Below, piece by piece: positions 5,837 to 23,418 of a stretch of 26,387 bases of DNA (its first letter is position 1; every line of letters begins with the position of its first letter). The stretch is from Chloroflexia bacterium (GTDB lineage: Bacteria > Chloroflexota > Chloroflexia > QHBQ01 > JAICKM01). Both the position numbers and the translations under genes were made by a program. Where the stretch lies: positions 1 through 26,387 of the forward strand of contig JBBSAN010000009.1 of NCBI GenBank assembly GCA_038252265.1, read 5' to 3'. Below the pieces are notes generated by a model, which worked only from the letters and a program-made list of their open reading frames with translations, ran no database searches and was not told the DNA's origin.

Positions 5837-8508
5837 GATTCCGGCACCACTTCGATCTGGTGTTCCCCCGAGACAAAGAGCCAGGTTTCCGGCAGGGTCA
5901 CAATGTCGTCCGGGGTCGCGTCACCGCTCGGCACGTAGGTGTCCCCCCCATTGGTGCTGAGGAAGATCCCGCGCTGCCCGCCTACCAACACCAGATTGGC
6001 CCCGCGGCCCACCGCAACCGTATCCACCGGCGCGAGGGTGCTCAGGTCCGACCGCAGCGGCAGGCCATCGGTAATCGTGGATGGCTCCCAGGTGGGGGTG
6101 GGCTTGCCAATGTCCAGCCGGGCCACGCCCCCGTGATGGGACGCGGCCAGCACCATCTGGCGGGGATCTTTCCCCGGCTCCCGCAGGACCAGGAAGGCCA
6201 GCCCGCGCACACTCCCTCCGGTCCACCCCTGGTTGAAGGCCGTCCAGCCGCCCGGTGGGTCCTGCTCGCCGCCTTGCAGCAACTCCCAGCGGAAACAGCC
6301 TTTGCCCGGATCGGTCATGCCGCCGGGCGAGAAGGCCCCGGCCCATAACCAGGCGCGAATCCCATCGACTTGCACGGCCAGTTCCCGAATATCCTGCCCC
6401 TGGATGGCCGGTGTGTTAATAGGCCGGAATGTGCGGCCCCCATCGAATGATAGATAGACCCCGCCCGGATCCTGGGGAGTGCCCCCCATCGGGGCCGCGA
6501 CCGCGAGGGTGAGCTTCCCCTGGGGATCGCGGCGGGTGGTGACGGTATAGAAGCCCAGGTCCTGCTTCCGCCGGTCCACCAGGAGCAACTGGGGACTGCC
6601 GGCATGGTCCGCGGGCAAGTCCAGGTCGTAGAGGCCCTTATCGGTCGCCAACAGCAGGTGCGGTATATCCTCGCGCAACGTCCAGGCCACGTCTTGCACC
6701 TGGAGCGCGATCGTATAGGGGGTCGCCTCCCAGCTTTCCCCGGTATCCCGCGAGATGTACAGGTGGGAACCGCCATTGTTCGCCGCGCGGGTCACGACGA
6801 CGAGCAGGCCCGCCACGTCGGGATGGGCGCGCACCAACGTGATCGACTCGCCCGAAAAGCGCCCCACCACTTCCCAGCCCGCTCCGTCGTTCAGGGAGCG
6901 GAAGAGGGTACCGTTATTGGGCGGCGGATTGGGGGTACCGGGATCCATCCCGATACCGGCGTACCAGGTGTGGGGCTGGAAGGGATCGGCAGCGATCGTG
7001 CTGATCGCGCCTGCGGGCACTTCATCGACGAGCAGCCCTACCTCATCGATCCAGCGCACCCCTGGCTCGGCCAGCGCGATGGCGAAGACGTTGGAGGCCC
7101 GCAAGGCCTGGCCGAACGTCCAGCCACCGGGCCAGCGGGCCGTCGGGAGCGGGTTGATCAGTTCATAGAGGCGGTCCAGGACTCGCTGCTTGACGGCGGT
7201 GGGATTTTCTTCGCGGCGTACGACGATCTTGGCTTGCACCCGCACGGTTTTATACTTGGCCCAATCCGCGATGCAGGCGGTACCCAGAGGCCGGCGCTCC
7301 TCCAGGGTGGTTTGCACCTGATCCTGCGCCGTTTGCGTCTGATGCGCCTGGAGCGCCTCCCGCGTCACCCGCTCGCCCACGCGGTCGGCGGGAGGGAGAT
7401 CGGGCACCAGCACCACTTCCACCGTGCCCGGTTCGGCATACGCCCACAATTCTTTCCGGGTAAACGCTTTGGCCCGGCTGATCGCTCCCAGGGCGCTCTC
7501 CACGGCGAGCCGCTCGAAATCGCGGGCGGTCACGGCGCGTTCCAGCGAGCGGAATTGCTGTGGCCCCCGCACCAGCGCATTCGCCAGGGCCTCCCCATCC
7601 CGTCCGCCGCTGGCCGGCTGGGGATTGGTGACCTGCACACCGGGCAGCGGATCTTTGAGCGTCGTCAGGGTATCCGCGGCCACATTGCCTTCCAGCCCCC
7701 CGCCCCGCCGATACCAGAGCCGAATTTCGCGATCTTTGATCGGCACTTCGGCCAGCGCTGCGGACGGCGCATCGGGCGTCATGCGGGCCGCCGGGGCGAA
7801 GCTGATGGTCCCCTCCATGCGGTCGAGCACATAGACAAAGCGGTCCGGCCCCAGATCCGTGAAGTTCTCGGTCTCGTGCCAGATGTGGTAGAGTTTGCCG
7901 TTATATTCCAGGGCCGGGTCGGGGGGGACTTTGTCTTCCGGGCGAACCTCCACGCCGACCATCAGATCGGGGGGGTGGTCGGTCGGCGCGATGATCGGCA
8001 GGCGGCGCACGGTGATGGTCAGCCCGGGCTGGCCGTTGGCCGTGCCGGCTGGCTCTCCGACCACCAGTTCGCACTGGTACGCCAGCACATCAATGCTGGG
8101 CTGGTTCGCGGGCAATGTGGCACTCTCTACGGTCACAAAGACGGGCGGTGCGGCACCACCGGCACTCCGGCCAACGGTCACCCGGGTGCCAAGCGGAATA
8201 TCAATCGCCGTCGTGGGTTGGCCTGCGCCAGCGGCCCGGCTGAAGCGGAGCAGCGTTTGCGCGGCAGCGGGGGGCTGCCGGTGGACACCCAGCAGGTTCA
8301 GCAGTTCGATGTACACCTTCTCCGGGACGCGATTCAGCCGGTAGATCAGCGCCTCGGTCAGATAGGCAAAGAGATCCAGCAGCACGATGCCGGGATCGCT
8401 GGGCGACGTATCGGTCCAGGCGGGGCAGAGTTGGGGAATGCGTTGGCGCTCCTCATCCACCAACTGTTGCCAGGTGCGATCATCCAGGTTGGGCGAAGGG
8501 AGAGGCAT
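5833..8508 (-). CDS. Baseplate J-like protein (gp6/gpJ/Afp11-like), 891 aa, with a C-terminal BNR/Asp-box beta-propeller extension
   Basis: N-terminus DRTWQQLVDE...PAWTDTSPSDPGIVLLDLFAYLTEALIYRLN is typical of the baseplate_J family. The C-terminal ~400 aa carry repeated S-x-D-x-G-x-T-W/Y/F motifs (SLNDGAGWE, SRDTGESWE, SFDGGRTFR, STNGGDTYV). Start overlaps the gp25 stop (TGATG). Confidence 0.85.
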   Translation of the reverse strand: MPLPSPNLDDRTWQQLVDEERQRIPQLCPAWTDTSPSDPGIVLLDLFAYLTEALIYRLNRVPEKVYIELLNLLGVHRQPPAAAQTLLRFSRAAGAGQPTTAIDIPLGTRVTVGRSAGGAAPPVFVTVESATLPANQPSIDVLAYQCELVVGEPAGTANGQPGLTITVRRLPIIAPTDHPPDLMVGVEVRPEDKVPPDPALEYNGKLYHIWHETENFTDLGPDRFVYVLDRMEGTISFAPAARMTPDAPSAALAEVPIKDREIRLWYRRGGGLEGNVAADTLTTLKDPLPGVQVTNPQPASGGRDGEALANALVRGPQQFRSLERAVTARDFERLAVESALGAISRAKAFTRKELWAYAEPGTVEVVLVPDLPPADRVGERVTREALQAHQTQTAQDQVQTTLEERRPLGTACIADWAKYKTVRVQAKIVVRREENPTAVKQRVLDRLYELINPLPTARWPGGWTFGQALRASNVFAIALAEPGVRWIDEVGLLVDEVPAGAISTIAADPFQPHTWYAGIGMDPGTPNPPPNNGTLFRSLNDGAGWEVVGRFSGESITLVRAHPDVAGLLVVVTRAANNGGSHLYISRDTGESWEATPYTIALQVQDVAWTLREDIPHLLLATDKGLYDLDLPADHAGSPQLLLVDRRKQDLGFYTVTTRRDPQGKLTLAVAAPMGGTPQDPGGVYLSFDGGRTFRPINTPAIQGQDIRELAVQVDGIRAWLWAGAFSPGGMTDPGKGCFRWELLQGGEQDPPGGWTAFNQGWTGGSVRGLAFLVLREPGKDPRQMVLAASHHGGVARLDIGKPTPTWEPSTITDGLPLRSDLSTLAPVDTVAVGRGANLVLVGGQRGIFLSTNGGDTYVPSGDATPDDIVTLPETWLFVSGEHQIEVVPES

Positions 8509-9029
8509 CAGATCTTTTCTCCTGCGAGGCTGAATGAGTAAGTCAACAATTGAATGCGCTGTGAGGTCCGTAAGCGATATTCGAGCAGCAGATCCAGGCG
8601 TTCTGGGACCTCGACACTGCGGCGCGCATCCAACCGGACCACTTCGATGCGCGGCTCCCAGCGGGCCAGCGCACTGCGGACGTAGTGAATCGCCAGGCCG
8701 GCGGTGGTGTCATCATTCGGCGCAAATACCAGGCGGTGCAAATGGCAGCCGTACGCCGGGCGCATGACGCGCTCGCCCGGCACCGTGGAGAGGAGCAGAA
8801 AGATGGCCTGCCGGATTGCCTCCTCTCCTTCGACCAGCGCCATGCCCCCGCGCACGTTCACTTGCAGCCCGCTCACCTGATCCGCAGTGGCGGCACCGGT
8901 CTCCGCCTCTGTGACCAGCGCCATGCCCCCGCGCATCTCCACCTGTGACCGGGTTCCCTCTGCCGGGGCACCGGCACTGGCGTGCAGGAATTGCCAGGTG
9001 CGATAACGGGGTCCGTTCGTGCCGTTCAT
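8508..9029 (-). CDS. Baseplate wedge protein gp25 / GPW-like (Afp9-like)
   Basis: IRQAIFLLLSTVPGERVMRPAYGCHLHRLVFAPND...ALARWEPRIEVVRL matches the GPW/gp25 signature. ATG at 9029 overlaps the upstream stop (ATGA). The N-terminal region contains an internal duplication. Confidence 0.85.
   Translation of the reverse strand: MNGTNGPRYRTWQFLHASAGAPAEGTRSQVEMRGGMALVTEAETGAATADQVSGLQVNVRGGMALVEGEEAIRQAIFLLLSTVPGERVMRPAYGCHLHRLVFAPNDDTTAGLAIHYVRSALARWEPRIEVVRLDARRSVEVPERLDLLLEYRLRTSQRIQLLTYSFSLAGEKI
8832..8935. repeat. 23-bp perfect direct repeat (gaccagcgccatgcccccgcgca) at 8832-8854 and 8913-8935, period 81 bp. An in-frame tandem duplication inside the gp25-like gene.
   Basis: Read directly. Encodes the duplicated peptide ...RGGMALV... 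(VEMRGGMALVTEAE / VNVRGGMALVEGEE) in the N-terminal extension. Confidence 0.85.
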
Positions 9030-9376
9030 AGCTTCGTTTCCACCAATGTTTGGCCGGGGCTTCGTACTTTGTACTTAAACGTGCCTGACATCATGCCGTC
9101 GGTCAGGCCGGTGACCGTGTCGAGGCAGATGGGGTGGCCGTTGATCCGCAACAGGCCCGAATAGCCCGCGTCCACGGTCAGGGTATGCTGGCACGGCGGG
9201 CCGCCAGGGACGGGTGGAAAGGGCAGGGGGCAGCCGGAGATGGTGCGGCCTTTGGGATCCGCCTCCACCAGCACCTTCCGTCCGGCCACCCGCACCAGGC
9301 TTTGTGACGGCTGATTCTTCACATGCCCCAGTTCGTGCTCGCAGACCAGCACCGCGTCTTCAGTCAGAATTTTCAT
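9026..9376 (-). CDS. PAAR-like (DUF4280-like) spike-tip protein, 116 aa
   Basis: Cys/His-rich (C12, H14, H18, C49, C62, H64, H82, C85). LLRINGHPICLDTVTG resembles the PAAR 'xINGxPAAR' segment. Sits between the spike and gp25 genes. Stop is adjacent to the VgrG-like stop/start. Confidence 0.55.
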   Translation of the reverse strand: MKILTEDAVLVCEHELGHVKNQPSQSLVRVAGRKVLVEADPKGRTISGCPLPFPPVPGGPPCQHTLTVDAGYSGLLRINGHPICLDTVTGLTDGMMSGTFKYKVRSPGQTLVETKL

Positions 9377-10897
9377 CTAAGCCTGCTCAAAGTTGATCGC
9401 CTTGCCTTGAATCAGGATGCTGTGACCGGGCGCTTCGATCACCAGGTCGGTTTCGGCGTGGATCAGGACCTTGCCAGGCGCTAATTCGACATAACTGCCA
9501 TCAATGGTCGCCATATGGACGATCTTGTGTTCGTCGTCGAATTGCACATATTGGCCGCCGGGGGTGCGCAGGGTGTAACGGCGGATCGCGCCACCCGCGA
9601 CGCCATCGTCGGGCGGCTTCTGGGTGCCGTACAGGCCTCCGAGGATCAACGCTTGGCCGGGATCTTCATGCGCGAAGAGCACCAGGACCTGATCTCCGAC
9701 ATCCGGCAGCGCGACGAGGCCTTTGCCCGGTCCCGCACCCGGCACGACCACCCCCAACCATTCGGTTTCCACATCCTCGTAGGCCGAGAGCTTGACGCGC
9801 ACTCGCCCCAACTCATCGGGATCGTCCACCTGCGTGACCACGCCCGGACTGGCGGTGGCGCGGCGCGTGGGGGTCTGGGCTGGTGGGGCATCGCTGGACA
9901 GTTCGGACACAAACCCTAGCTGCGGGTCAATGGTGTGCGTGACGGTGGTCAGCACATAGCGCCCGGCGACGGCGGTTGCCACACCGTCTATCTCCACCAG
10001 GCTACCCGGTTGGAGGCGCGGGTCGCCGTCGGCCACGCCCCAGAAGGTCACCTCGCGGGCGACACGCCGGTCCAGTTCGGCCTGGGCCAGCCCCTCGGCG
10101 TGCGGATCGTCCGGCGCGATAGCATCCACCAGATCGCGCTTGCCGCTCCCGCCGACCCGGTCGGGCGGCACCGTTGCGGGGGCGGTCCGGCCTACCCGCG
10201 CTGTGCTGGCGTGCCCCGTGTGGGTCTCGATACGCTGCGAATTCCAGCCGATGGTCGTCACTTCGTGGCAGGCCGGATCCCCGTTGACTTCCAGCCGCGC
10301 CTCAAGCAGCGCCTGGCCCAGGGTGAGGGGGAGCGGATCGCCCATTCCGTCGAGGGTGATCAGGTGCAATGTCGTTTCCCGCACGGTGAGGTACAACCCG
10401 CAGCGCTCGGCCACACCGACCAGCAGTTCCAGGTCCGATTGGCCCCACTGGAACAGCCGGGGCCAGTGCGGGCCGTCCACTACCGCTGCAACGGTCAGGC
10501 CGAGATCGCCGGCCAGCTCCTGGGCCAGATCGCGCACGGTCACCTGAACATGGGCGCGTACCGGTTGGCGCTTGCGCAGCCGGTGCAGCATGTCGTAACC
10601 CCGGACACGGACAGCGCGCTCGTGGGCAGGGCCATAGACATGCTCTACCGCCGTGACCTCGCCGACAAAGAGGGGCGGGCCGCTGCCAGGCACACGGACC
10701 CGCAGGCCCGCCCCCGGCTCCAGGCCACTGAACATGGTCAACGGGCCGGGAGGATCGGCGAAGGTCAGTTCGCACAGGGTCGGCATCGACAGGCGTTGCT
10801 GCACGCGCACCGCCGCCAGGTCGCGCGCCTGGTCGGCGGCCAGGGGCGTGCCGTCCACCTCAACCGTGACCTGGGGTAAGCCAAAGATCTGGCTCAT
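9377..10897 (-). CDS. Central spike protein, phage late-control gpD / VgrG-like (Afp8-like), 506 aa, with no C-terminal effector domain
   Basis: GRYVLTTVTHTIDPQLGFVSELS (gpD signature), followed by a gp5-like OB region and a C-terminal beta-helical region (VLVLFAHEDPGQALILGGLY...). ATG overlaps the upstream stop (ATGA). Confidence 0.85.
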   Translation of the reverse strand: MSQIFGLPQVTVEVDGTPLAADQARDLAAVRVQQRLSMPTLCELTFADPPGPLTMFSGLEPGAGLRVRVPGSGPPLFVGEVTAVEHVYGPAHERAVRVRGYDMLHRLRKRQPVRAHVQVTVRDLAQELAGDLGLTVAAVVDGPHWPRLFQWGQSDLELLVGVAERCGLYLTVRETTLHLITLDGMGDPLPLTLGQALLEARLEVNGDPACHEVTTIGWNSQRIETHTGHASTARVGRTAPATVPPDRVGGSGKRDLVDAIAPDDPHAEGLAQAELDRRVAREVTFWGVADGDPRLQPGSLVEIDGVATAVAGRYVLTTVTHTIDPQLGFVSELSSDAPPAQTPTRRATASPGVVTQVDDPDELGRVRVKLSAYEDVETEWLGVVVPGAGPGKGLVALPDVGDQVLVLFAHEDPGQALILGGLYGTQKPPDDGVAGGAIRRYTLRTPGGQYVQFDDEHKIVHMATIDGSYVELAPGKVLIHAETDLVIEAPGHSILIQGKAINFEQA

Positions 10898-11667
10898 GTT
10901 TGCTCCATCTGGCCCGCCACCGGTGGGATACGCAGCACCATCCCGGCGGCCAGCCGAAACGGATCAATAATGTCATTATAGATCGCCAGCAAGCGCCAGG
11001 CATCGGCGCGGCCAAAGTAGGTGTAGGCGAGCAGATCCAGTCGCTCGCCGGTGCCCGGCTCTTCCCCGTCGCCTCCCCCCTGGATCTCGTGGAACAGGTC
11101 GCCGTTTCCCACGTCCGGGGGGAGTTCCGCTGGGTTCTCCGGCACGGGCGGCAGCATCTCCAGAAAATCCGCCGGATCGGGCGGGGGCGTGGTTGTTTCC
11201 GGCGTGCTGGGTTCGCGCACGCGGAGCAGCCGCAGGCGCATCCACGAGCGCTGCGCGGCCCCGGTCGCGCTGAATTGCTCGAGCCGTTCTGCCACCGCCG
11301 TGATCACCCCCGGCACGTTCCAGGCCTTACCCCACACAAAACGCACCACTGGGGGCTGACCATACCCATCTCTGCCGGTCCCGTTCTCGGCCAGATTCCA
11401 GAGCGGGGCGGTGAGATCACGCACATCTTCAGTGGTGATGGAGGCACCGCCCAGGTTGATATCGAAGAGCAAGTCCATTTCGAGTTCCGTCCGCCCGCCC
11501 CCGGTGTAGAGCAGCGGATCATCGGCCAGCCCGGTCCCGGTCAGTTGCCCGCCCGCCGACCGGCGGGGCCGCACGCCCGCCAGCCGGCGCATCACCAGTG
11601 TATCGGGGTTCAGCAAACAGGTCAGTGTTTCGTTGCGCTCTTCGAGAAGAAAGGCTACGCGCTCCAT
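10894..11667 (-). CDS. Tube-initiator / baseplate hub protein with C-terminal LysM-like domain (Afp7/Pvc7/gpX-like)
   Basis: C-terminus ERLDLLAYTYFGRADAWRLLAIYNDIIDPFRLAAGMVLRIP fits the LysM consensus. Position immediately 5' of the gpD-like gene is as in P2 (X-D) and eCIS (afp7-afp8). Confidence 0.7.
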   Translation of the reverse strand: MERVAFLLEERNETLTCLLNPDTLVMRRLAGVRPRRSAGGQLTGTGLADDPLLYTGGGRTELEMDLLFDINLGGASITTEDVRDLTAPLWNLAENGTGRDGYGQPPVVRFVWGKAWNVPGVITAVAERLEQFSATGAAQRSWMRLRLLRVREPSTPETTTPPPDPADFLEMLPPVPENPAELPPDVGNGDLFHEIQGGGDGEEPGTGERLDLLAYTYFGRADAWRLLAIYNDIIDPFRLAAGMVLRIPPVAGQMEQT

Positions 11668-13016
11668 TCGAGGCCTCGCTGTTCACGGTCTAGCCGCTGG
11701 AGCCGTTCCCAGGCGCGCAGGGCCACGGCCAGATCGTCGCCGGGCAGCGGGTCCTCGTCCGGCAGGGTGGGCCAGGGAGAACGCAGCCCTGCCTGCTCAA
11801 TCGCAGCCATGCCCGCAGGCGGGGAGGGAGTTGTCTGGGGGGCCATGCGGGGCCGCCGCGCCGGGCCAGGCGGTGATACCCTGGACACCCACTCTTCCTG
11901 GTTGACCTCCGGCCAGACCAACATCTCCAGGGGCGGAGCGGCGGTGACCGGCCCTCGTCTCGCCGCAGAAAAAGGAGAACGCCCGGCTTCCGCAGTCGTG
12001 GCGAACCGGGTCCACCCCGGCGCGCTCTCAGCTGGTCGGGCCGGGTGTACGGCCTCATGCCCTCCCGACTCGGCCTGCGGCCCTACCGGGACCACGCCCC
12101 TACCGGCAAGGGGAGGCGGTTTTGTCCGCCCGCCCGCTCTATCTCGCGGGGGCGGCAGGCGTTGCCCGGTTGGGGCGGGTCTGCCTCGCTCCGGCGGTCG
12201 TTCCGGCGTTTCTGCCAACCCTGGATCGAGCGCGGGCGGCTGGCCTTCTGCGGTCACCCGATCGGCCCTGGTGACGGCGCGGGGCGCTGCCTGCTGCGGC
12301 GGGATCGCCGCTCCCCTTTCCAGCGCCCCGCCGGCGCGGCCTGTGGCTCTGGCCCACGCCCCCTGTTCGAACGAGATCCCTCGTTCGGACTCGGGCCTGT
12401 GGGGCGGCTCCGTCCCCCTGACCCCGGCCCATCGGGTCGCTGGCGTTGGCCGTGGTGCCGCCGGGACCCCAGAACCTGTTGCGCCTGCGCGCCGGGCGGC
12501 AGGAGCAGGCGTGGCCTGCGGCTGTGCCAGTTCCGGCGGAGTTCCTGTCCGCCAGGGCGCCAGGATATCGGGCATCCGGAAGTTCCACAAGTTCCGCCCG
12601 GTTCCCGCTACGGGCCGAGCCGATACCCGCCGGCCCGGATGGCGGCGTCCCGCCGCTGGCCGGCCGGTGCGCCCCGCGTCCCCGGTCAGGGTGGGGGGAC
12701 GCACGCGGGCGGCTGGTCTGCTCGCGCCACCCCCGCTGGCCGGGCGGATGGCCGCGCCGGGCGGTGACCCGGTCGTGCTTCCCGAAGTAATCAGGGAGCC
12801 ATCGTCGGTGAGCAGTTCGGGTGCCCTGGCCCGGATGTCGGCCAGCCAATGGGCCGGGGGACCCGCCGAAGCAGGACGGGAGTCCCCCGAGGCTCCCTCC
12901 GGGCGGCGGGTCGTTGGCCGGTCGCTGTTCGCTTGCTGTAGCGCAAAGATCGTCAAGCGCCGCAGCGGGCGGGCCAGCACGCGCCAGCAAAAGGTCCAGA
13001 AAGCATGGGTAGCCAT
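11655..13016 (-). CDS. Pro/Ala/Arg-rich hypothetical protein (453 aa) in the tape-measure position. Reading frame uncertain in this stretch.
   Basis: ATG at 13016 lies 4 nt after the tube stop. The ORF exactly fills the tube-to-LysM gap and overlaps the LysM gene start by 13 nt. N-terminus (MATHAFWTFCWRVLARPL...) and C-terminus (...DDLAVALRAWERLQRLDREQRGLEWSA) look protein-like; the middle is low complexity. Several alternative frames are also open here (12139..12990-, 12045..12767+). Confidence 0.35.
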   Translation of the reverse strand: MATHAFWTFCWRVLARPLRRLTIFALQQANSDRPTTRRPEGASGDSRPASAGPPAHWLADIRARAPELLTDDGSLITSGSTTGSPPGAAIRPASGGGASRPAARVRPPTLTGDAGRTGRPAAGRRHPGRRVSARPVAGTGRNLWNFRMPDILAPWRTGTPPELAQPQATPAPAARRAGATGSGVPAAPRPTPATRWAGVRGTEPPHRPESERGISFEQGAWARATGRAGGALERGAAIPPQQAAPRAVTRADRVTAEGQPPALDPGLAETPERPPERGRPAPTGQRLPPPRDRAGGRTKPPPLAGRGVVPVGPQAESGGHEAVHPARPAESAPGWTRFATTAEAGRSPFSAARRGPVTAAPPLEMLVWPEVNQEEWVSRVSPPGPARRPRMAPQTTPSPPAGMAAIEQAGLRSPWPTLPDEDPLPGDDLAVALRAWERLQRLDREQRGLEWSA

Positions 13017-13020
13017 GCGC

Positions 13021-13461
13021 TCAGGCTCGCTCTAGCGTCTCGAACACCAGGGTCAACTGCTCAATCGCGGCCTCATGGGTGAGCGCGTTAAGCACGGCAC
13101 CCCGCCACTCGGCGGGCCAGGCGTTCACCAGATCCCAGCGGGTCAGCTCGGCCACCCCGTCGCTGTCGAGCATCAGGATCGACACATTCTTGCGATCCAC
13201 CTTGCCCTTCACGGCGGTCATAAACCAGTCCCACAGTTCGTGGGAGGCCGTCAGGCCATAGCTGAGGGTGACATCGCCATACTCGACCGGGCCGGGCAGC
13301 ACATGGGTGACCTGGCTTTGCCCCCCCTCCCGATATTTGATGGCGTGTACTTTGATGCCGATGCCGGTGCATTCGGTGAAATGCCCTTCGGTCACGCCCG
13401 CGATGACGAGCTTGAAGTTGTAACCCCGATAGGGTTCTGTGTACGTCCCAGGATTAGGCAT
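13021..13461 (-). CDS. Contractile tail tube protein (T4 gp19 / Afp1-Afp5 / Hcp-like family), 146 aa
   Basis: YRGYNFKLVIAGV...FTECTGIGIKVHAIKYREGG... has a typical tube-protein length and pattern. ATG at 13461 with SD GGAGGG. Overlaps the sheath stop by 8 nt. Confidence 0.9.
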   Translation of the reverse strand: MPNPGTYTEPYRGYNFKLVIAGVTEGHFTECTGIGIKVHAIKYREGGQSQVTHVLPGPVEYGDVTLSYGLTASHELWDWFMTAVKGKVDRKNVSILMLDSDGVAELTRWDLVNAWPAEWRGAVLNALTHEAAIEQLTLVFETLERA

Positions 13462-14743
13462 TGTTCCCTCCTGCTGGCGCGGTCTGGGTGCTCACGGCAC
13501 CGGCCCACTGGCTGATGCGGAAGATGATAAACTCGGCGGGTTTAACCGGCGCGATCCCGATCAGAATCACAACCATCCCAGCGTCGATGATATCCGGGGT
13601 ATTGGTCTCTTCATCGCATTTGACAAAGAAGGCCTGCTCGGGGGTTTGGCCCAGCAAGGCTCCATCCCGCCAGATCCGGGTGAGGAAGGCGCTGACATCG
13701 CGGCGAATGGATTTCCAGAGGGTCCGATCATTCGGCTCGAACACGATCCAGCGGGTGTTGTCCGCAATCGACTCCTCAATCATATTGAAGAGGCGGCGCA
13801 CGTTCAGATAGCGCCATTCGCTGGCGCTGGCGGCCAGCGTGCGCGCCCCCCAGACGCGGATGCCCTCGCGGACGAAGAAGCGGATGCAGTTGACGCCCGC
13901 CTGGTTTAGCTCGCCCTGCTCGTCGCGGGTCAGCCGGTAGGTGACATCCAGTGCGCCCCGCACGGTCTCATTGGCCGGGGCCTTATGCACCCCGCGGGTT
14001 GCATCGCTCCGCGCCCAGATCCCGGCCATATGCCCGGATGGGGGCACCGACACCAGATCGTTGGTGGTTGCCAGCGGATCCCGCACCAGGATATTGGGGA
14101 AATAGTAGGCACCATAGCCGCCGTCTGACTGGCGGGCGCGCAACCCGGTCTGATCTCCGCCTGCCGCCGGGGCTGCCGGGGGCGATCCGGCCCCGCCGTC
14201 TGCGGGGGTGCCGCCGCCCGCCGGTGGGGTGCCCCCACCCCCGCTTTTCTTCGCCTTTGGCGTGGCAACCTGGGTTAAGTCGTCAATATTCGTGACATCC
14301 GGCGGCGCGTCGAGGATCGCCACCCGATCTTTGAGCCGTTCACAATGGGTGAGCAGGGCATCATAGCTCGCGGCATCCGTATAGCCGGGCGCAGCGACGA
14401 TGGCGATCTCGTCGATGGCCTCGAAGAGATCTAACCCGCTGCGGGTGCGCCCGCCGCCGGTGATCGCGCCCCCCGCCCCGACATTGCAAACGTAGCAACG
14501 GCTGCCGCCATTCTGAAAGAAGCCATACACCGCGTGGGCGAGCGGGGTGCTGGCCGTACTGCCGACGGCGAACGTGTTGACAAATTGCGTCCAATTATTG
14601 ATCGCCATAGCGACATTCACCGGCGCATTGGGGTCCGGGGCCACGCCAATAAAGCCTGCGGTACTGGTGCCTACCGCCTCAATAGGTCGCCCGCCACCAG
14701 GGACCTCTTCGACATAAATATCCGGTGCTAAGTAGGTCGGCAT
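13454..14743 (-). CDS. Contractile tail sheath protein (429 aa) with a Gly/Pro-rich surface insertion
   Basis: MPTYLAPDIYVEEVPGG... is the canonical sheath N-terminus (xYxAPGVYVEE). The ATG at 14743 has a perfect SD AAGGAGG 6 nt upstream. The ORF-track start at 14761 is a TTG. Confidence 0.9.
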   Translation of the reverse strand: MPTYLAPDIYVEEVPGGGRPIEAVGTSTAGFIGVAPDPNAPVNVAMAINNWTQFVNTFAVGSTASTPLAHAVYGFFQNGGSRCYVCNVGAGGAITGGGRTRSGLDLFEAIDEIAIVAAPGYTDAASYDALLTHCERLKDRVAILDAPPDVTNIDDLTQVATPKAKKSGGGGTPPAGGGTPADGGAGSPPAAPAAGGDQTGLRARQSDGGYGAYYFPNILVRDPLATTNDLVSVPPSGHMAGIWARSDATRGVHKAPANETVRGALDVTYRLTRDEQGELNQAGVNCIRFFVREGIRVWGARTLAASASEWRYLNVRRLFNMIEESIADNTRWIVFEPNDRTLWKSIRRDVSAFLTRIWRDGALLGQTPEQAFFVKCDEETNTPDIIDAGMVVILIGIAPVKPAEFIIFRISQWAGAVSTQTAPAGGNNA

Positions 14744-14757
14744 ACTATCCCTCCTTA

Positions 14758-15438
14758 TCAATCGAACAGGTTAAAGTGGATCACCAGCGGCTCACCCCCG
14801 CCAGGGAGTGCAGTCGGCTGTACGCTCAGTTCGCGTCCTTTCGCCCCCACCAGCAAGTGCAGCTTCTGTGGCTCGTCCGGCACCAGTGCAAAGCGAAAAC
14901 GGCCACGCCTATCGGTTCGGGTGGTTCGGCCCAGCCCGACCAGTTCCACTCGCGCATCGGCCAGGGGGATATCATTCGGCCCCAGCACCAGCCCGATCAG
15001 GGTGGTCAGCGGGGTCGTCTGCACGCTGGGCAAGCTCCGCACGAGCTTGACGTCCGGCTCCGGTCGCTCCATCCGTAGCGGAACTCGGATCACAAAGGCG
15101 GGCCGAGGGGCCGTGCCGAGACCCGCCCAGGTCGTGGCCGGTAGCGGGTCCGGATCGACCTCGAACTCCGGCTTCTCCAATGCCGCGAACACGAGTTGTC
15201 CCAGCAGGCGATGGGCTTCCTCCGGCGAGTCGGCCCAGGTGGTCACGAGATACCGCAGCATCACTTGCAACGGCGCGCGGGTTGCCGTCCGGGCCAGGGG
15301 GGTAGGGATCATCTCCAGTAAGTAGACATTGACCATACTGCCACTCTGCGCCGGGGCAGGCACCCCGAATGACACCGCGATCCCCGAGATAACCCCTGCG
15401 ACCCAATCCTTGAGGCTCTGGTCTGTCTGATCGATCAT
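14758..15438 (-). CDS. Tail terminator/cap protein, DUF4255 (Pvc16/Afp16 N-domain) plus carboxypeptidase-regulatory-like C-domain
   Basis: MIDQTDQSLKDWVAG...VSFGVP...VNVYLLEM...LRYLVTTWA matches the DUF4255 pattern (MI.D.D..L...L, YLITAW). C-terminus LIGLVLGPNDIPLADARVELVGLGRTTRTDRRGRFRF fits a CarboxypepD_reg fold. ATG at 15438 is preferred; the track start at 15507 is a GTG. Confidence 0.75.
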   Translation of the reverse strand: MIDQTDQSLKDWVAGVISGIAVSFGVPAPAQSGSMVNVYLLEMIPTPLARTATRAPLQVMLRYLVTTWADSPEEAHRLLGQLVFAALEKPEFEVDPDPLPATTWAGLGTAPRPAFVIRVPLRMERPEPDVKLVRSLPSVQTTPLTTLIGLVLGPNDIPLADARVELVGLGRTTRTDRRGRFRFALVPDEPQKLHLLVGAKGRELSVQPTALPGGGEPLVIHFNLFD

Positions 15439-16192
15439 CGTCTGCTCACCGGGTAGTGTGTCTACGGAGCCTTGAAGAACGTGCGGCCAACGACGATCTT
15501 CAACCACTTTGTTCGCCAGCCTATCCTGACCGGCGACGCGCCGCTGTCAGCACTGACGCTCCAACACCGAGAGTTCGTTGGCAAACTGCCGCAACACTTC
15601 GACAAAGTCACGTTTGGTGTTCGGCGTGGCGGCTTCGACCCGTTGTTGGCTGACTGGTGGGTTCGACCCCGATGAAGCGATCAGCAGGTGTCGTGGTGGT
15701 CCTACTCGTCGTCGGTACAGGTTACACGCCGTGGTTGTGGTGGGAAGCAGTGGGCGGGCAACAGAGGCGGCATGGAGTTCTTTGCTCTTTTCAGTGCCCC
15801 AGCCAACAACCTGCGCTGGCGCATCGGGGCGAGCATAGCGAGCGAGCACATCTTACACCTTGGTTGTGAGGCCCGTCTTGGCCTTGAGGATGCACAATCT
15901 GAAAAGGTGAAGCGGTCTCCATGTCGAGTAGTGTGGTCATCCCGTCAATGGTTAGGGGGTAAAAACAGGAACTCTAAGTGAGATTATATTCCAAAGGGAT
16001 CGTCTAGTCAATAGGATCAGCGGGCGCTTTCGGTCAATTGCACCTAAATTAGGCATAGGCCCGCGCCATGAGGCCCGAAATGGCCTGATTGGTGGTTGGT
16101 GCTCGTGCCTGGTCGCAACGGGAGCCAGGACAAGACGTATCTCTGCGTACCCACTTTAGCTGCACTCGCCCTGGGTACCGCCAACCAGGGGC

Positions 16193-16229
16193 TAGACTTC
16201 CGCACAAATGTTCGCTATAATGGAGGTAT
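16193..16229 (+). promoter_or_regulatory. Sigma70-like promoter: TAGACT (-35, 16193-16198), 17-bp spacer, TATAAT (-10, 16216-16221). It would give a leaderless or very short-leader transcript starting at the ATG at 16228.
   Basis: Read directly. The GGAGG at 16222-16226 is only 1 nt from the ATG, so it cannot act as an SD. Confidence 0.35.
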
Positions 16230-17412
16230 GCTCATCCAATCGGCACCGGATACTCTGGATAAACTGGCCCAGATGGGGAACGCCACGGCGTTTGAGCCGG
16301 CAGGCGATGCGCCCACGCGCGAAACCATCGCTGCGCCGGGGCCGCCAGGCCGGTATCAGTCGCATAGCCTGGCCGACTGCATCACGCATGTCGCCACGCC
16401 GACCGGGCAGAAGCCGATCCTCAAGACGATGCTGACCACCGCCTGCGAGCGCAATTGCTTCTATTGCCCCTTCCGCGCCGGGCGAACCAAAACCGTCCGC
16501 GTCACCTTCGGCCCCGATGAGTTGGCGCGCGGCTTCTCCACCCTTCAGCAGGCCGGGCAGGTGGACGGCTTGTTCCTCACCTCGGGCATTATCCAGGGCA
16601 GCGTCGCCACCGAGGACCGGCTGCTGGCGACGACCGATCTGATCCGCAATCGCTATGGCTACCGGGGCTACGTCCACCTCAAGATCATGCCCGGTATCGA
16701 ATACGCCCAGTTGTACCGGGCGATGCAACTGGCCGACCGCGTGTCGGTCAACCTCGAAGCCCCGACCCAGGAGCGGCTGAACGCCCTCGCGCCGAAGAAG
16801 GATTTTGCCCGCGAACTGTTGCAGATGCTGCACTGGGCCGAGACGATCCGGCGGGAACACCCGGAGGAGAAGCTGGCCCGCACGGTGACGCAGTTTGTGG
16901 TCGGGGCGGCGGGCGAGACCGACCGGGAGTTGATGGCGCTCAGCGCCCGGCTCTATCGCCAGTGGGGGCTGACCCGTGCCTACTACTCGGCCTTCCACCC
17001 CATCGTGCAAACCCCGTTTGAGCACCTGCCCGCCACCGACCCGGTGCGCGAGCGGCGGCTCTATCAGGCCAGTTTCCTGCTGCGCGACTTCGGCTGGGGG
17101 GTGGACGAGTTGGCGTTCGAGCCGGATGGCAACCTGCGCACCGACGTAGACCCGAAGCGGGCCTGGGGCGAGGCCCACCTGCGTCACGCGCCGCTGGAAC
17201 TGATGACCGCCTCGCGTGAGCAGTTGCTGCGGGTGCCCGGCATCGGCCCGGTGGCTGCCGACGCGATCCTGCGGGGCCGCCGCGCCGCACACCTGACCGA
17301 TCTGAGCCAGTTGCGGCGGCTGGGCCTGCGGGCACCCGAGCAGGCCGCCCCCTACATTCTGCTCAATGGGCACCGCCCGCCCATGCAGCTATCCCTCTTC
17401 GACCGGCCCTGA
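16228..17412 (+). CDS. Radical SAM protein with C-terminal helix-hairpin-helix (putative DNA modification/repair radical SAM family)
   Basis: CERNCFYCPF (CxxxCxxC) and C-terminal LLRVPGIGPVAADAILRGRR (HhH). Start at the ATG at 16228; the track start at 16096 lies in AT-richer intergenic DNA. Confidence 0.7.
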   Translation: MLIQSAPDTLDKLAQMGNATAFEPAGDAPTRETIAAPGPPGRYQSHSLADCITHVATPTGQKPILKTMLTTACERNCFYCPFRAGRTKTVRVTFGPDELARGFSTLQQAGQVDGLFLTSGIIQGSVATEDRLLATTDLIRNRYGYRGYVHLKIMPGIEYAQLYRAMQLADRVSVNLEAPTQERLNALAPKKDFARELLQMLHWAETIRREHPEEKLARTVTQFVVGAAGETDRELMALSARLYRQWGLTRAYYSAFHPIVQTPFEHLPATDPVRERRLYQASFLLRDFGWGVDELAFEPDGNLRTDVDPKRAWGEAHLRHAPLELMTASREQLLRVPGIGPVAADAILRGRRAAHLTDLSQLRRLGLRAPEQAAPYILLNGHRPPMQLSLFDRP

Positions 17413-17441
17413 CCCGTATCCGACCACTGCCGAGCACATTC

Positions 17442-18446
17442 CTAGCTGCGCCCGATTAAATGGGCGTGCCGGTCGGCCAGCCCGATCCGGGCAATGGCCC
17501 CCGCGTTGAAGGCCAGGTAATCGCTCTCGATCCCATCGCTGAAAATAACCCCAACGTCCGGCATCTGCGAGGTGATCACCAACTCCTGGCCCGGGCCAAG
17601 CTGCCCGATGACTAAACCCGCCTGCGAGCTTTTCGAGGGGAACGGCTCGCGCACCGCGAACCACAGCCGGGCGGCGGCCCATCCCAGCGCGAGCGCCTCT
17701 GGCCCCGGCGGGGCGGCAGGGCTGGCCCCGAAGTGCTGCGCGATCTGCCACGCGCCGGTGGTGATCGCCCGCAGCCAGCCGGTGCAGCCCGCGCCCGTCG
17801 CCACAATCAAGCCGCTGGAACTCTGCTGCTCGCGCTGCCCCTCGAACTCCAGGGCATAGCGGGCCGAGACATGGGTGCGCGCCCCGATGAACAGGTCGTT
17901 GACCGCATACAACACCTGGCCGTCATTGAGCGTCGCCTGGGCCATGGTGATCGGGGTCACCGCTACCCGGCCCTCTATGGCGCGGGGCAGCCAGGTCGCC
18001 AGATCGCGTACCCCAAACGGGATCAGGATCCCGTCGATCCGATCGGGATCGGGGTTAATCGCCAGGATCGGCTGGGTAGTCAGATACTTGGCCGTATTGA
18101 TCACCAGGCCATCCGGGCCGAGCGTGATCACCAGGTCACGCTCGCCAAACTGGAAGGTCGGCAGGAACTCCCGGTCGATGAACTGGTGCTTGATCGTTCG
18201 CGGCAACTGCTGCTGGATGGCGACCAGCGCCTGCTGGTACTGCCCCGCGGCGCGCTCGTATTCGGCAAAGGAGACGCCATTTTGCTCCAGGTAAAAGCGG
18301 GCCTGGCCGGGGGAGTTCAGCCGGGCCACCAGTTCCGCCAGCGGCGTTTTCTTGGTCACCACGACGATCTTCTCGATCTCCGGCCCGGCGGGGGGTGGGC
18401 GGGGCGCAGCATTCGGCTGCGCCCCGATCCGGCGGGACAGGCCCAT
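17442..18446 (-). CDS. ATP-NAD kinase / diacylglycerol-kinase-like superfamily protein (putative)
   Basis: DLVITLGPDGLVINTAKYL (degenerate GGDG motif) and NDLFIG (NE/D motif). ATG at 18446 with SD GAAGG. The track start at 18497 is a GTG. Confidence 0.45.
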   Translation of the reverse strand: MGLSRRIGAQPNAAPRPPPAGPEIEKIVVVTKKTPLAELVARLNSPGQARFYLEQNGVSFAEYERAAGQYQQALVAIQQQLPRTIKHQFIDREFLPTFQFGERDLVITLGPDGLVINTAKYLTTQPILAINPDPDRIDGILIPFGVRDLATWLPRAIEGRVAVTPITMAQATLNDGQVLYAVNDLFIGARTHVSARYALEFEGQREQQSSSGLIVATGAGCTGWLRAITTGAWQIAQHFGASPAAPPGPEALALGWAAARLWFAVREPFPSKSSQAGLVIGQLGPGQELVITSQMPDVGVIFSDGIESDYLAFNAGAIARIGLADRHAHLIGRS

Positions 18447-18501
18447 TGTATACCTTCTTTCTGCGGTGGGGGCCGTGCGGTGGCCCCGGATCGCCACCGC
18501 G

Positions 18502-19365
18502 CTAGCGGTTCAGCAATTGTTCGAGGATCTCGGTCGTGATGGTCAGATTGCCGATTTTGGCGGCGTTGGCCGCGAAATCGCGGAAGGCGATCCCCAGCAC
18601 CAGCCGGGCATCCAGCGCCTGATAGGGGGTCAACTGGATGCGCAGGGCTTCCGCCTCAAACGCCGCTAGGGCCTGGGTGTTGGCCCCCTGCAAGGCGACC
18701 AACTCCTGGCGGCGCTGCTCCAGGTCCACCGCGGTCGATAGCTCGTTCTGCTTGATCGCGCGTTCCTGCTCGACCGCAGCGGCGCGGCGCGCATAGATGG
18801 CCTGGTCGGCCCGCTGTTGCACTGCCTCCCGCGACTCGGCCTCCAGGGCTTTGGCGAGTTCGGGGGTGGCTTTGAGCGCGGTAAAGAAGAGGCTGACGAT
18901 TTCGACCCCCAGTTCGCCCAGGCTCGGCTCGGCCTGCATCCGGGCCAGCACTGTCTGCGCCAGCGCTGCTGTGCTGTGCAGGGCGGCTTCCAGCCCCAAC
19001 TGCTGGAGTTCGGCGCGCGTATGCATCTGCACGACATTGATGATCCGCTGGTCCAGTTTCTGGGGATCGTCGGCGCGATATTGCCGGGTCCGCGGCTGAA
19101 TGGTGAAGTTCAGCAAGCGGGCCAGGGTTTCGGGGGCGGTAATGTGATAGGTCAACTGGCCTTGCACGGTGACGGGCTGGAACGTGCGGGTCGTTTCGTT
19201 GAAGACGAACAGGGCATCCACCGTCGCCACGGGCATCAGGACGATCGAGGTGGAAGGGGACCAATACCAGAACGCTCGCCCGGCCCCCTGGCAGAAGATC
19301 CGGCCATTGTTGTAAGCCAGGACATATTCTGTCGGCTCGGCCTTAAAAAATCCCAGCAGGGCCAT
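18502..19365 (-). CDS. SPFH / band-7 (stomatin-prohibitin-flotillin-like) domain protein
   Basis: MALLGFFKAEPTEYVLAYNNGRI...IVLMPVATVDALFVFNETTRTFQPV... followed by a long Ala/Glu/Gln-rich coiled-coil tail. ATG at 19365 with SD AAAGGAGG at 6-nt spacing. Confidence 0.65.
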   Translation of the reverse strand: MALLGFFKAEPTEYVLAYNNGRIFCQGAGRAFWYWSPSTSIVLMPVATVDALFVFNETTRTFQPVTVQGQLTYHITAPETLARLLNFTIQPRTRQYRADDPQKLDQRIINVVQMHTRAELQQLGLEAALHSTAALAQTVLARMQAEPSLGELGVEIVSLFFTALKATPELAKALEAESREAVQQRADQAIYARRAAAVEQERAIKQNELSTAVDLEQRRQELVALQGANTQALAAFEAEALRIQLTPYQALDARLVLGIAFRDFAANAAKIGNLTITTEILEQLLNR

Positions 19366-19631
19366 CAGTGCCTCCTTTGGTGGTCCGCCCGGAAACGCCG
19401 CGCGTACGATGCGAGGCCGGTCGGTAACGGATAATAATTGTCTAATAGACACTAACTAACAGGACTAAAAATGAGCTGCCCGGACCTGAACGATCTAGCA
19501 GTATTCATGTACCAACTACACTAAGTATAGCACGCGAAGGGGGATCTGTCAATAGCTGCGCGTGGACGTTAGCGCATCCATCTCCCGGCGGGGGAGCCGG
19601 GCTGATGCAACGTCGGTGTGGCCCAACCCCA

Positions 19632-19754
19632 GGCAGTCATCCTGCGCGCCGCGCAGGATCTTGTTGGGGCGACCACATCGTTAGGGAAGATCGGGAGCGT
19701 CGCCTCCACACCTTTGCTTGCCAACAAGATCCTGCGCGGCGCGCAGGATGACTG
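19632..19754. repeat. Perfect 35-bp inverted repeat (arms 19632-19666 and 19720-19754) flanking a 53-bp spacer. Each arm contains an internal 21-nt palindrome atcctgcgcgccgcgcaggat.
   Basis: Read directly: gcagtcatcctgcgcgccgcgcaggatcttgttgg and its exact reverse complement ccaacaagatcctgcgcggcgcgcaggatgactgc. Lies in the 640-bp divergent intergenic region between the SPFH and MCP genes. Confidence 0.9.
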
Positions 19755-19929
19755 CGGAGATGGGATCGCACCGACCGATGGTGTATCAGCCGTGGGCAGG
19801 GGACCCTGCACAAGCCCGCCCTTATCAGCGAGAATTATGGGTTTCTTTGTGTTCGACCTCGCCTCGTGGGTCTGCCGATCCCGCAGCCTACCGTCCGTTC
19901 TGTTACCAGGGTGGTATACGTGTGTTACC

Positions 19930-19948
19930 CCATAATAGTGTATTATGG
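19930..19948. promoter_or_regulatory. Palindrome CCATAATA-gtg-TATTATGG, 59-77 nt upstream of the MCP start. Candidate operator and/or -10 element.
   Basis: Read directly. Arms are TATAAT-like. Confidence 0.3.
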
Positions 19949-20006
19949 AATGGAGAATGCCGGAGGATGGCTCCATGGGGTATCGGGGTATTCAGAGGAG
20001 ACACAC

Positions 20007-21458
20007 ATGCTTAACTGGTTCCTGACTTGCCGCGCGATCGACCTCGATCAGAGCCAGCGCGGGCGCTTATTAAACTGGTTCTTGTTGATCTTCACCGCGT
20101 TCGCTCTGATCAATGTGAGTTGGACCTTGACCCTGGGCCTGGGCGATGTGGGCTTGCTGCTGCTCCTCGTGGTGGGCCTGCTGCTCGGCATCCATGCCCT
20201 GAATCGCCGGGGCGCGGTGGATGGGGCCGCAGCCAGTCTGGTGGGGCTGCTCTTTGTGGCGATCCATATCCTGTGTATCTCACCGGCGGGTGGCCTGGTC
20301 GCCGCCGGGATGGCTCCGACTCTCCTGGCGATTCCCATCGTCCTGGCCGGCGTCACGCTCCCCTGGCGCGCCACCCCGCTCGTCGGCGGCCTGGCCGCCG
20401 TTGATACCCTCTGGCTCTATACGACGGGCCTCTCGTCGCTGACGGGCTACTGGCAGACCAATTTCGTGGACATGTTGGCCCTGGTGTTTTCGACGCTGAC
20501 GCTGCTCGCCACCCTTGGCCTGCTCGCCGCGCTGTCCGGTCGCCAGATCCAAACCAGCCTGACCCACTTGCGCCAGCGGAATGGGGATCTGGAAGCGGCC
20601 AACCTGGCGCTGGCGCAGCAACACCAGGGCGAGCAGGCGCTGGGGGCCGGGATCAGCGATCTGGCGGCCCGCTTAGCCGCCGTGAGCCAGCACGAGGTCC
20701 GGGGGGTGGCGACCCAGGCCCAGGCGATCCGCCAGGTGGTCGGCGTGGTCGATCAGCTTAATACTGCCGCCCAACGGATCGCGGCGCTCGCCGCCGAGGT
20801 GAGCGCCGCGGGGGCGACTGCCCTGGGGCGCGTCCAGCAGGCCCAGGAGCTGGTCCGGCAGAACCATACTGCGGTGCAGCAAAACCGCGCGCAGATCGAA
20901 GAGGTGATCGCCAGTATGCAGACGCTGGAACAAGGAACGGACCACCTGATCAGGTTTATGAACCGGATGCAGGATCTATCGGATGAGACCCAATTGCTGG
21001 CCTTGAACGCGACGATTGAGGCCGCCGGGGCGGAGGGGCGGGGGCACCGGTTTGGGGTCGTGGCCGTTGAGGTGCAGCACCTGGCCCTGCGCGCCAATGA
21101 GACGGTGACCCAGATGCGCGCCCTGATCCGCTCCTTACAGGCGGCAGGCCAGCAAACCCAGGGGGCGACGCGGCGGAGTATCGCGGTGGCCGACGATGTG
21201 GACCACCTGACCGAGGAACTGCGCGGTGCCCAGGCGCAGGTGGAGGCGACGGTGCAGCGGACCAGCGACCTGGGGCAGTTGATCCGGACGGCCACCGGCC
21301 AGCAGACCGCTGACGCCGCCCAGATGACCCAGACCATTCAGCAGATCGCCCAGGTTGCCCAGGAGACCAGGGAGAATACCACGGCCCTGGAGCAGGTGGT
21401 CGGTGAGATGACCCAGGCGGCGGGCGTGCTCACCCGCGCTATGGCCGCCCGCCTCTAG
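20007..21458 (+). CDS. Methyl-accepting chemotaxis protein (multi-TM N-terminal region plus MCP signalling domain)
   Basis: LLALNATIEAAGAEGRGHRFGVVAVEVQHLALRANETV is the canonical MCP highly-conserved-domain motif. ATG at 20007 with SD AGAGGAG 6 nt upstream. N-terminal 250 aa are hydrophobic. Confidence 0.85.
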   Translation: MLNWFLTCRAIDLDQSQRGRLLNWFLLIFTAFALINVSWTLTLGLGDVGLLLLLVVGLLLGIHALNRRGAVDGAAASLVGLLFVAIHILCISPAGGLVAAGMAPTLLAIPIVLAGVTLPWRATPLVGGLAAVDTLWLYTTGLSSLTGYWQTNFVDMLALVFSTLTLLATLGLLAALSGRQIQTSLTHLRQRNGDLEAANLALAQQHQGEQALGAGISDLAARLAAVSQHEVRGVATQAQAIRQVVGVVDQLNTAAQRIAALAAEVSAAGATALGRVQQAQELVRQNHTAVQQNRAQIEEVIASMQTLEQGTDHLIRFMNRMQDLSDETQLLALNATIEAAGAEGRGHRFGVVAVEVQHLALRANETVTQMRALIRSLQAAGQQTQGATRRSIAVADDVDHLTEELRGAQAQVEATVQRTSDLGQLIRTATGQQTADAAQMTQTIQQIAQVAQETRENTTALEQVVGEMTQAAGVLTRAMAARL

Positions 21459-21806
21459 AGTGCCCCGGCGCGGACAGCGGCGTCCTGGGCCAAGTCCCGC
21501 GCTTCTTCGCACTCGCCGGCGGGGCGCTAGGCCACGCGGCTCAGCGCGGCCAGGCGTCGGACGAGTCGGTGGCGGACTCTGCCTCGCTCCCCACAAGTAG
21601 GCAACGATCCCCCCGTAATTGTACCTCCCTTTGCCCCACCCAACCCGATCTCGCCCCGGTTCTCGGTCCCTGCGCCGCCGGTGGACGATGTTTGTAAGTA
21701 GGCATCCTTTTCTCTGGCTGCCGGGCTGCTATACTGGCAAGCAACCGCATCATAAGGAGATAAGCGATCTATGTCTGTTGAACTGACTCCCCAAGGGATG
21801 ATTATG

Positions 21807-23282: not shown

Positions 23283-23320
23283 TCAAACGACCGAGAGCTA
23301 CCTAGCTCTCGGTCGTTTGA
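23283..23320 (-). terminator. 38-bp near-perfect palindrome (18-bp stem caaacgaccgagagcta / tagctctcggtcgtttg) about 25 nt downstream of the tRNA-Gln 3' end. Likely a tRNA transcription terminator or bidirectional terminator.
   Basis: Read directly. No long U-tract on either strand. Confidence 0.45.
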
Positions 23321-23344: not shown

Positions 23345-23418
23345 TGGCTGGGGTGCAAGGATTCGAACCTCAATTGACTGATCCAGAATCAGCTGTCCTA
23401 CCTTTAGACGACACCCCA
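23345..23418 (-). tRNA. tRNA-Gln (anticodon CUG), 74 nt, CCA encoded
   Basis: Manual fold of UGGGGUG-UC-GUCU-AAAGGUA-GGAC-A-GCUGA-UUCUGGA-UCAGU-CAAU-UGAGG-UUCGAAU-CCUUG-CACCCCA-G-CCA. It has a U1-A72 pair and G73 discriminator (bacterial tRNA-Gln identity features), a GG in the D-loop and a TΨC loop UUCGAAU. Anticodon CTG sits at 23386-23384. Confidence 0.85.

Follow-up and report, generated by a model that had tools for sequence, protein, structure and literature searches.

A Perfect Inverted Repeat with Nested Palindromes Upstream of an SPFH Operon in a Ktedonobacteria-like Genome: A Possible Orphan REPIN/MITE-like DNA Element

Gene Environment of the Inverted Repeat

The stretch of DNA that was analysed, called the window below, is contig JBBSAN010000009.1 of assembly GCA_038252265.1 at its full length of 26,387 nt. 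The host genome is Ktedonobacteria-like, and the homologues of its SPFH protein are labelled Ktedonobacteraceae or Chloroflexia. The inverted repeat described here is located in a divergent intergenic region of 641 nt, and both neighbouring genes are directed away from it. On the left is an SPFH/Band 7 gene followed by a conserved partner gene; on the right is a gene of a methyl-accepting chemotaxis protein (MCP) (Table 1). An exact look-up of the MCP and SPFH proteins of the window found no record. The right arm of the repeat is separated from the ATG of the MCP gene (20007) by 251 nt and the left arm from the ATG of the SPFH gene (19365, minus strand) by 267 nt, in good agreement with the 250 and 270 bp given in the first-pass annotation of this DNA.

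The partner gene (17442–18446) has no Pfam match. In the relatives, it always follows the SPFH gene and encodes proteins of 314–335 aa, and it contains invariant motifs, for example, IVxTGAGCTGWLR and FSDGIExDYL. Its product can be described as an uncharacterised conserved partner of SPFH.

Table 1. Positions of the inverted repeat, its parts, and the neighbouring features in the window.
Feature	Position	Strand	Remarks
SPFH-partner gene, conserved	17442..18446	-	334 aa
Segment replaced in the sister genome (L053)	17808..19798		1,991 bp; 89 unrelated nt (9705–9793) in L053
SPFH/Band 7 gene	18502..19365	-	287 aa
SPFH-operon promoter	19524..19552	-	TTGACA-17-TGcTATACT, 11/12 match; conserved in four relatives
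Left outer arm of the quasi-palindrome	19600..19632		decayed
Left perfect arm	19633..19667		GCAGTC + 21-nt palindrome + CTTGTTGG; repeat search
Nested palindrome of the left arm	19639..19659		10+1+10, ATCCTGCGCG-C-CGCGCAGGAT (whole: ATCCTGCGCGCCGCGCAGGAT)
Spacer	19668..19720		53 nt
Right perfect arm	19721..19755		exact reverse complement of the left arm; repeat search
Nested palindrome of the right arm	19729..19749		sequence of the left arm but with a central G, which marks the inverted orientation
Right outer arm of the quasi-palindrome	19756..19791		decayed
Methyl-accepting chemotaxis protein (MCP) gene	20007..21458	+	483 aa

Anatomy, Statistics, and Folding of the Repeat

A repeat search over the whole window revealed a perfect inverted repeat with two 35-nt arms, complementary at 35 of 35 positions, around a 53-nt spacer. 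The first-pass annotation had described the length of the arms and the gap correctly; the coordinates that it gave (19632–19666 and 19720–19754) are wrong by one position, the true ones being shifted by +1 nt. The 21-nt self-complementary core that it noted in each arm was also found. In both of these nested palindromes, 10-nt arms flank one unpaired base. The 35-nt unit can be described as a 6-nt flank, the 21-nt palindrome, and an 8-nt flank, and its two copies, with their asymmetric flanks, are inverted relative to each other.

By chance, 1.8e-13 perfect 35-nt inverted repeats with a spacer of at most 400 nt would be expected in the window; in 30 shuffles, perfect inverted repeats reached a length of 15 nt at most. 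The 21-mer, expected 0.01 times in the window, was observed twice, and a perfect 21-nt palindrome within each arm would arise by chance with a probability of about 3e-5. A chance origin of the repeat is excluded.

The symmetry does not end at the perfect arms. Imperfect outer arms (approximately 19600–19632 and 19756–19791) gave a local alignment score of 13 versus 7.5 ± 1.5–1.8 for the controls; this score was reached by 16 of the 2000 shuffles and by 30 of the 2000 genomic controls (p about 0.01). When the unit was compared with its own reverse complement using blastn, the level of identity was 72.5% over 204 nt. Taken together, the perfect core and its outer arms make up a quasi-palindrome of about 190 bp (19600–19791). 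It also forms a G+C island, with a G+C content of 64% versus 54–55% in the flanking intergenic DNA.

The folding of the repeat is highly non-random, and the very stable stem proposed earlier is borne out for both RNA (z −10.9) and single-stranded DNA (z −11.7). The predicted RNA fold of 201 nt has an energy of −134 kcal/mol, with a similar result for the opposite strand, and the single-stranded DNA fold of the 123-nt core has an energy of −55.8 kcal/mol. In the latter fold, the stem is extended inward by 6 bp (GGCGAC at 19668–19673 pairs with GTCGCC at 19699–19704), and the 16 nt at 19705–19720 are left unpaired as a one-sided asymmetric bulge. The spacer taken alone folds no more stably than shuffled sequences (z about 0.2). 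As single-stranded DNA, either arm by itself folds into a 9-bp hairpin at about −10 kcal/mol (−10.2 kcal/mol for the left palindrome). The 35-bp stem does not contain any G–T pair, which points to DNA-level constraint or to recent copying.

Promoter and Putative Operator of the SPFH Operon

The lone strong promoter-like site of the 641-nt intergenic region, TTGACA-17-TGcTATACT, is directed toward the SPFH gene and is conserved in the related loci L025, L056, L057, and L058. The left repeat arm begins 81 nt upstream of its −35 element. In the relatives, an operator-like palindrome TATACTTAGTGTA...TACACTAAGTATA overlaps the −10 element of this promoter and the transcription start. The L057 version (region 3946–3976) is a perfect 14-nt inverted repeat; the window version (19446–19552, minus strand) has a degenerate right half and, in the SPFH leader of about 150 nt, a second copy resembling a half-site, TAGTTAGTGTCTATTAGACA. 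The promoter and the operator-like palindrome are located approximately 80–130 bp from the large repeat. The palindrome overlapping the −10 element, and not the large repeat, is probably the operator of the SPFH operon.

As a fallback, the large repeat itself had been put forward as a candidate operator. This proposal is weak: the relatives do not conserve the repeat upstream of SPFH, and the conserved promoter with its palindrome is situated elsewhere. A more specific version of the same idea would have a dimeric protein bind the two 21-bp palindromes, the centres of which are 90 bp apart, as a pair of identical operators and regulate SPFH and/or MCP, possibly with looping. Two perfect 10+1+10 palindromes in a divergent promoter region are what such a pair would look like. 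However, the arms remain identical, in inverted orientation, for 6 and 8 nt past the palindromes, and an operator has no need of this extra identity. Relative to the inferred start of SPFH transcription, the centres are approximately 132 and 222 nt upstream, and their spacing of 90 bp, or about 8.6 helical turns, does not put them in phase for looping. Moreover, the relatives carry a different conserved palindrome on the SPFH −10 element and have no such repeat upstream, while the sister genome, described below, keeps an intact MCP gene without the repeat. None of the window ORFs scanned matches a known family of DNA-binding regulators, and the 21-mer was found in no other promoter of the collections searched. 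We consider a pair of operators quite unlikely.

Perfect inverted repeats around a short segment between diverging genes could also suggest an inverton, in which a site-specific recombinase would flip the 53-bp spacer between the 35-bp arms. No promoter-like site was found within the spacer, however, and no window ORF scanned matches a recombinase family. In addition, 53 bp is very short for recombinase synapsis. This explanation is scarcely credible here.

On the MCP side of the intergenic region, a direct repeat TGTTACC (19901–19907 and 19923–19929, 22 nt apart) can be noted approximately 80–100 nt upstream of the MCP start. It belongs to the DNA common to the window and the sister genome and could be a site of the response-regulator type or a part of the MCP promoter.

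The RNA Reading

The repeat had also been compared with a structured sRNA. If transcribed, it might act as an independent sRNA or as a long leader hairpin, with a 35-bp duplex that serves as a stabiliser or is targeted by RNase III. In favour of this reading, exceptional RNA folds are predicted for both strands. An unrelated 136-nt hairpin of L056 (7680–7815) is preceded, 78 nt upstream, by a good promoter-like site, so leader hairpins may occur in the group. The surroundings of the repeat speak against it. On neither strand did the promoter scan reveal a promoter-like site directed into the repeat, and inspection by eye turned up no convincing weaker one; no terminator-like site, and nothing with the features of an intrinsic terminator, was found after it, and the lone strong promoter nearby fires away from the unit.

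Known RNA families do not help this reading either. At gathering thresholds, no Rfam family covers the repeat, and tRNA-Gln (23345–23418) is the sole match in the window. At E ≤ 10, the repeat matched the MIR1151 model with 41 bits, the best score, versus a gathering threshold of 90, and the MIR6297 model with 33.6 bits versus 114. These models of plant and animal miRNA precursors were rejected as generic matches to long hairpins, their scores being below half of the gathering score. The covariance-model check that had been suggested therefore gave no known family near threshold, and the sRNA proposal is weakened by the lack of both an Rfam family and a flanking promoter or terminator. The stem is perfectly Watson–Crick paired with zero G–U pairs, which suggests constraint at the DNA rather than at the RNA level, and there are zero homologues in which covariation could appear. 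From these fold predictions and searches, a structured RNA seems improbable.

In another part of the window, a stem of 18 perfect base pairs around a 2-nt centre (23283–23320, minus strand) occurs 24 nt after the tRNA-Gln gene, which has a TTGACA-17-TATAAT promoter. This stem is not followed by a T-run, and terminators in this organism may therefore lack U-tracts.

Copy Number

A BLAST search for further copies had been recommended as the test of a MITE or REP element, and its outcome is negative for the window, for related loci of about 42 kb in total, and for the GTDB, metagenome, IMG/VR, plasmid, and phage collections. Within the 26.4-kb window, no further copy was found with the 21-mer at up to 3 mismatches, nor when the search was relaxed to 5 mismatches in 21 nt and 10 in 35 nt; about 42 kb of related Ktedonobacterial loci contain none. 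The 21-mer gave 24 matches in 185,579 GTDB species genomes and 27 matches in 241 million metagenome records (JGI/ENA), all of them singletons. Judged by their taxa and flanks, which are unrelated, all 51 singletons are chance matches. The 21-mer has no match in IMG/VR, and the plasmid and phage collections gave none with blastn. The six-frame translation of the element has no match at E ≤ 1 among 5.8 billion proteins, so no called ORF in this set lies over another copy.

Since the window genome and its sister are two MAGs with 96% identity, they should belong to one GTDB species, and an abundant family should show in the GTDB representative if this species is represented. A low-copy mobile family in the source genome, of which the 26.4-kb window is the part searched, is possible.

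Comparison with the Sister Genome

The sister MAG GCA_038246015.1 (locus L053) is collinear with the window. The level of identity is 96.05% for window positions 8059–17807 and 96.4% for positions 19799–21726. Between these two blocks, the segment of 1,991 bp listed in Table 1 is replaced in the sister by 89 unrelated nucleotides. Missing from the sister are the SPFH gene and its promoter, two thirds of the partner gene on its N-terminal side, and the entire palindrome.

The direction of this change can be read from the partner gene. In the window, the 334-aa gene is full length by comparison with distant relatives, whose partner proteins have 314 aa; its product is 88% identical to the L025 partner over the N-terminal part; in the sister, a 131-aa ORF is the C-terminal remnant of the gene. 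Because the gene is full length in the window and only its C-terminal remnant is present in the sister, the deletion occurred in the sister. Homology resumes at 19799, so that the right end of the deletion is 3–7 nt outside the base of the hairpin. If the ends were random in the intergenic region, a coincidence of this kind would have a probability of about 5%. The hairpin may have caused the deletion.

The sister MCP gene is intact and has 208 nt of shared upstream DNA but no palindrome; the MCP gene is therefore probably independent of the repeat.

The same comparison bears on an artefact of assembly or a chimeric join, a concern that arises from the window being an entire metagenome-assembled contig. 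Both flanks of the repeat are collinear with the sister at 96%, the gene across the left boundary of the indel is intact and full length, and an independent JGI contig matches the SPFH side. From a false join at a shared k-mer, one would expect a single arm, not two arms with a unique spacer and decayed outer arms. The 123-nt unit is also shorter than a typical read. An artefact is highly improbable.

The filler of 89 nt in the sister begins with A-TGGGCAG, and the 7-mer TGGGCAG is also present in the window at 19793–19799, just inside the right boundary.

Other Relatives and Unrelated Hairpins

The palindromes of the repeat are absent from the sister genome and from the regions upstream of SPFH in L056 and L057; the 393 nt upstream of SPFH in L056 contain no inverted repeat of at least 10 nt. 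The contigs L025, L054, and L055 stop short of the corresponding position. Each relative has a different neighbour upstream of SPFH: Pro_racemase, PIG-L, small unannotated ORFs, or cytidylate kinase. Given the deletion in the sister, the differing neighbours, and the lack of a repeat in L056, the repeat is lineage-specific and is located in a spot prone to rearrangement.

Long intergenic hairpins as such are not restricted to the window. Unrelated ones of 121–179 nt (z from −6.6 to −9.8) were found in L056 (7680–7815), L057 (2782–2960), and L053 (15617–15737). Like the window element, they have perfect or near-perfect arms, in their case of 16–25 nt, are located in long intergenic regions, and fold in a strongly non-random manner; unlike it, they have largely self-complementary interiors, one consists of heptamer tandem repeats, and none shows sequence similarity to the window element. 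Features of this kind are common in the Ktedonobacterial group, which lowers the surprise at finding one here. Two of these three hairpins are located between diverging genes, and one is made of GTGAAAC heptamer arrays.

Similarity to REPIN and MITE Elements

The first-pass annotation had called the repeat MITE-like or REP-like. In its build, the element matches a REP doublet or a MITE; second copies, which both would lead one to expect, were not found. In REPINs, two inverted copies of a flank–palindrome–flank unit surround a spacer, and the central base marks the orientation (PMC3337134). The window element has this architecture: two inverted units with a spacer between them form one long hairpin. 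Like the RAYT-mobilised REPINs and BIMEs of Pseudomonas and Enterobacteria, it is an inverted doublet of a palindrome with asymmetric flanks and an orientation-marking central base. It is likewise extragenic and about 100 bp in size, has a spacer of tens of base pairs, and forms a long hairpin as single-stranded DNA. Spacings of approximately 34–110 bp have been reported for REPs (PMC3337134).

Several differences can be noted. REPINs occur in tens to hundreds of copies per genome, whereas the window element is single copy in all data searched. REPIN spacers are self-complementary, while the window spacer is not and forms no hairpin; REP palindromes are described as imperfect, and that of the window is perfect. 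Unlike REPINs, the window element is situated in a divergent promoter region. REPs are usually found at the 3′ ends of genes, and the window element is between diverging genes. No RAYT or other transposase was detected among the window ORFs scanned against Pfam. We know of no REPIN population described for the host phylum (Chloroflexota, Ktedonobacteria-like). RAYT transposases have been reported in Caldilineae, another class of Chloroflexota (PMC5581495).

With bacterial MITEs (Correia/NEMIS, RUP, and foldback elements of the ERIC type), the element shares a size of 123–190 bp, the absence of coding, long terminal inverted repeats, an intergenic position, and a lineage-specific distribution; a small non-coding unit bounded by inverted repeats is one mark of such elements. 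In contrast to MITEs, no target-site duplication, other copies, or known parent IS sharing its ends was found, and its perfect part is internal to a weaker outer symmetry and not strictly terminal. The flanks ...CCCCAG / GCAGTC...GACTGC / GGAGAT share no direct repeat. One weak candidate duplication near the outer boundary, in G+C-rich DNA, is non-adjacent and matches at 7 of 8 positions (GGGGAGCC at 19589–19596 versus GGGGACCC at 19799–19806). The element is built like a REPIN or a MITE and looks like one, yet it is not classed as a member of either group.

Three further candidates were compared with the repeat and rejected. The GTTRRRY / RYYYAAC cores known from attC sites do not fit, the motifs being at the inner and not the outer ends of the arms. 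A 38-bp end of the Tn3 type is not supported because the GGGG terminus is lacking. In a PATE of the IS200/IS605 type, the end hairpins are in direct orientation, while the window arms are inverted.

The element also resembles the quasi-palindromes and long inverted repeats known as replication-dependent fragile sites: a perfect core is embedded in imperfect symmetry, the hairpin of single-stranded DNA is stable, and the sister deletion ends at the base of the stem. The likeness differs in kind from the two above, since fragile-site quasi-palindromes stand for mechanisms (template switching and hairpin-stimulated deletion) and not for a sequence family, and the causal part of the deletion here is a conjecture drawn from position.

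Origin and Possible Role of the Element

The repeat is probably ordinary structural or selfish DNA. Among the specific explanations, we tentatively prefer an orphan, hairpin-forming DNA element of the REPIN/MITE kind without a dedicated host function, the hairpin of which may have seeded the deletion in the sister. Such an element would have been inserted, or would have arisen, upstream of the SPFH-operon promoter in the window lineage and would now persist, alone or in very few copies, as the relic of a non-autonomous mobile element. It would be neither a dedicated regulatory site of the flanking genes nor an RNA gene. Its main effect would be exerted at the DNA level: when single-stranded in replication, it could form a stable hairpin, or it could extrude as a cruciform, and in either case it might behave as a fragile site.

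The absence of mobility is the core of another explanation, in which an older imperfect inverted repeat existed locally and, during replication, gene conversion or intramolecular template switching removed the mismatches from its central 35 bp; the resulting palindrome would be functionless and would persist until deleted. Template switching at quasi-palindromes is an established route from imperfect to perfect repeats (PMC7202029). The sharp step from a core with 35 of 35 matches to outer arms with about 72% identity and indels would follow naturally from such an event, and the single copy in everything searched, the missing target-site duplication, and the deletion in the sister agree with it. 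This course of events would be unlikely to yield a perfect 21-nt palindrome within each arm as a by-product, however, and so leaves that feature (about 3e-5 by chance) unexplained; the G+C island is not accounted for either, and the outer symmetry from which it starts is only moderately significant (p about 0.01). We regard a purely local origin as unlikely.

A broader version of the preferred REPIN/MITE-like reading is more doubtful. It would make the element a member of an undescribed Ktedonobacterial population of REPIN-like sequences, with further copies and a RAYT-type transposase in parts of the genome outside the window, and its doublets would be fragile sites that drive gene loss at the strain level, such as the 2-kb deletion of the SPFH operon in the sister. 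Were a genome-wide family with its own transposase to exist, systems of the REPIN–RAYT type would be extended to Ktedonobacteria. If the hairpin triggered the loss of the SPFH operon in the sister, the pair of genomes would illustrate palindrome-driven gene loss in nature. Under the orphan-element reading taken by itself, the consequences are minor: the locus should be annotated as a repeat region, neither a gene nor an operator, and marks a spot that varies between two genomes with 96% identity.

Other Features of the Window and the Sister Genome

To the left of the SPFH genes, positions 1–15507 of the window (1–7332 of L053 in the sister) contain a complete-looking cluster of a contractile injection system or phage-tail-like particle. 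Its genes include Tail_P2_I, baseplate J, gp25, VgrG/GPD, CIS_tube, gp19 tube, sheath, and Pvc16_N. Beside this cluster are a ceramidase-like gene and a gene with weak similarity to phospholipase C.

Synteny with the sister stops at 21726, which is a second breakpoint at the strain level. Past this position, the window encodes a metallophosphoesterase, tRNA-Gln, and zinc-ribbon proteins, and the sister encodes a branched-chain ABC transporter.
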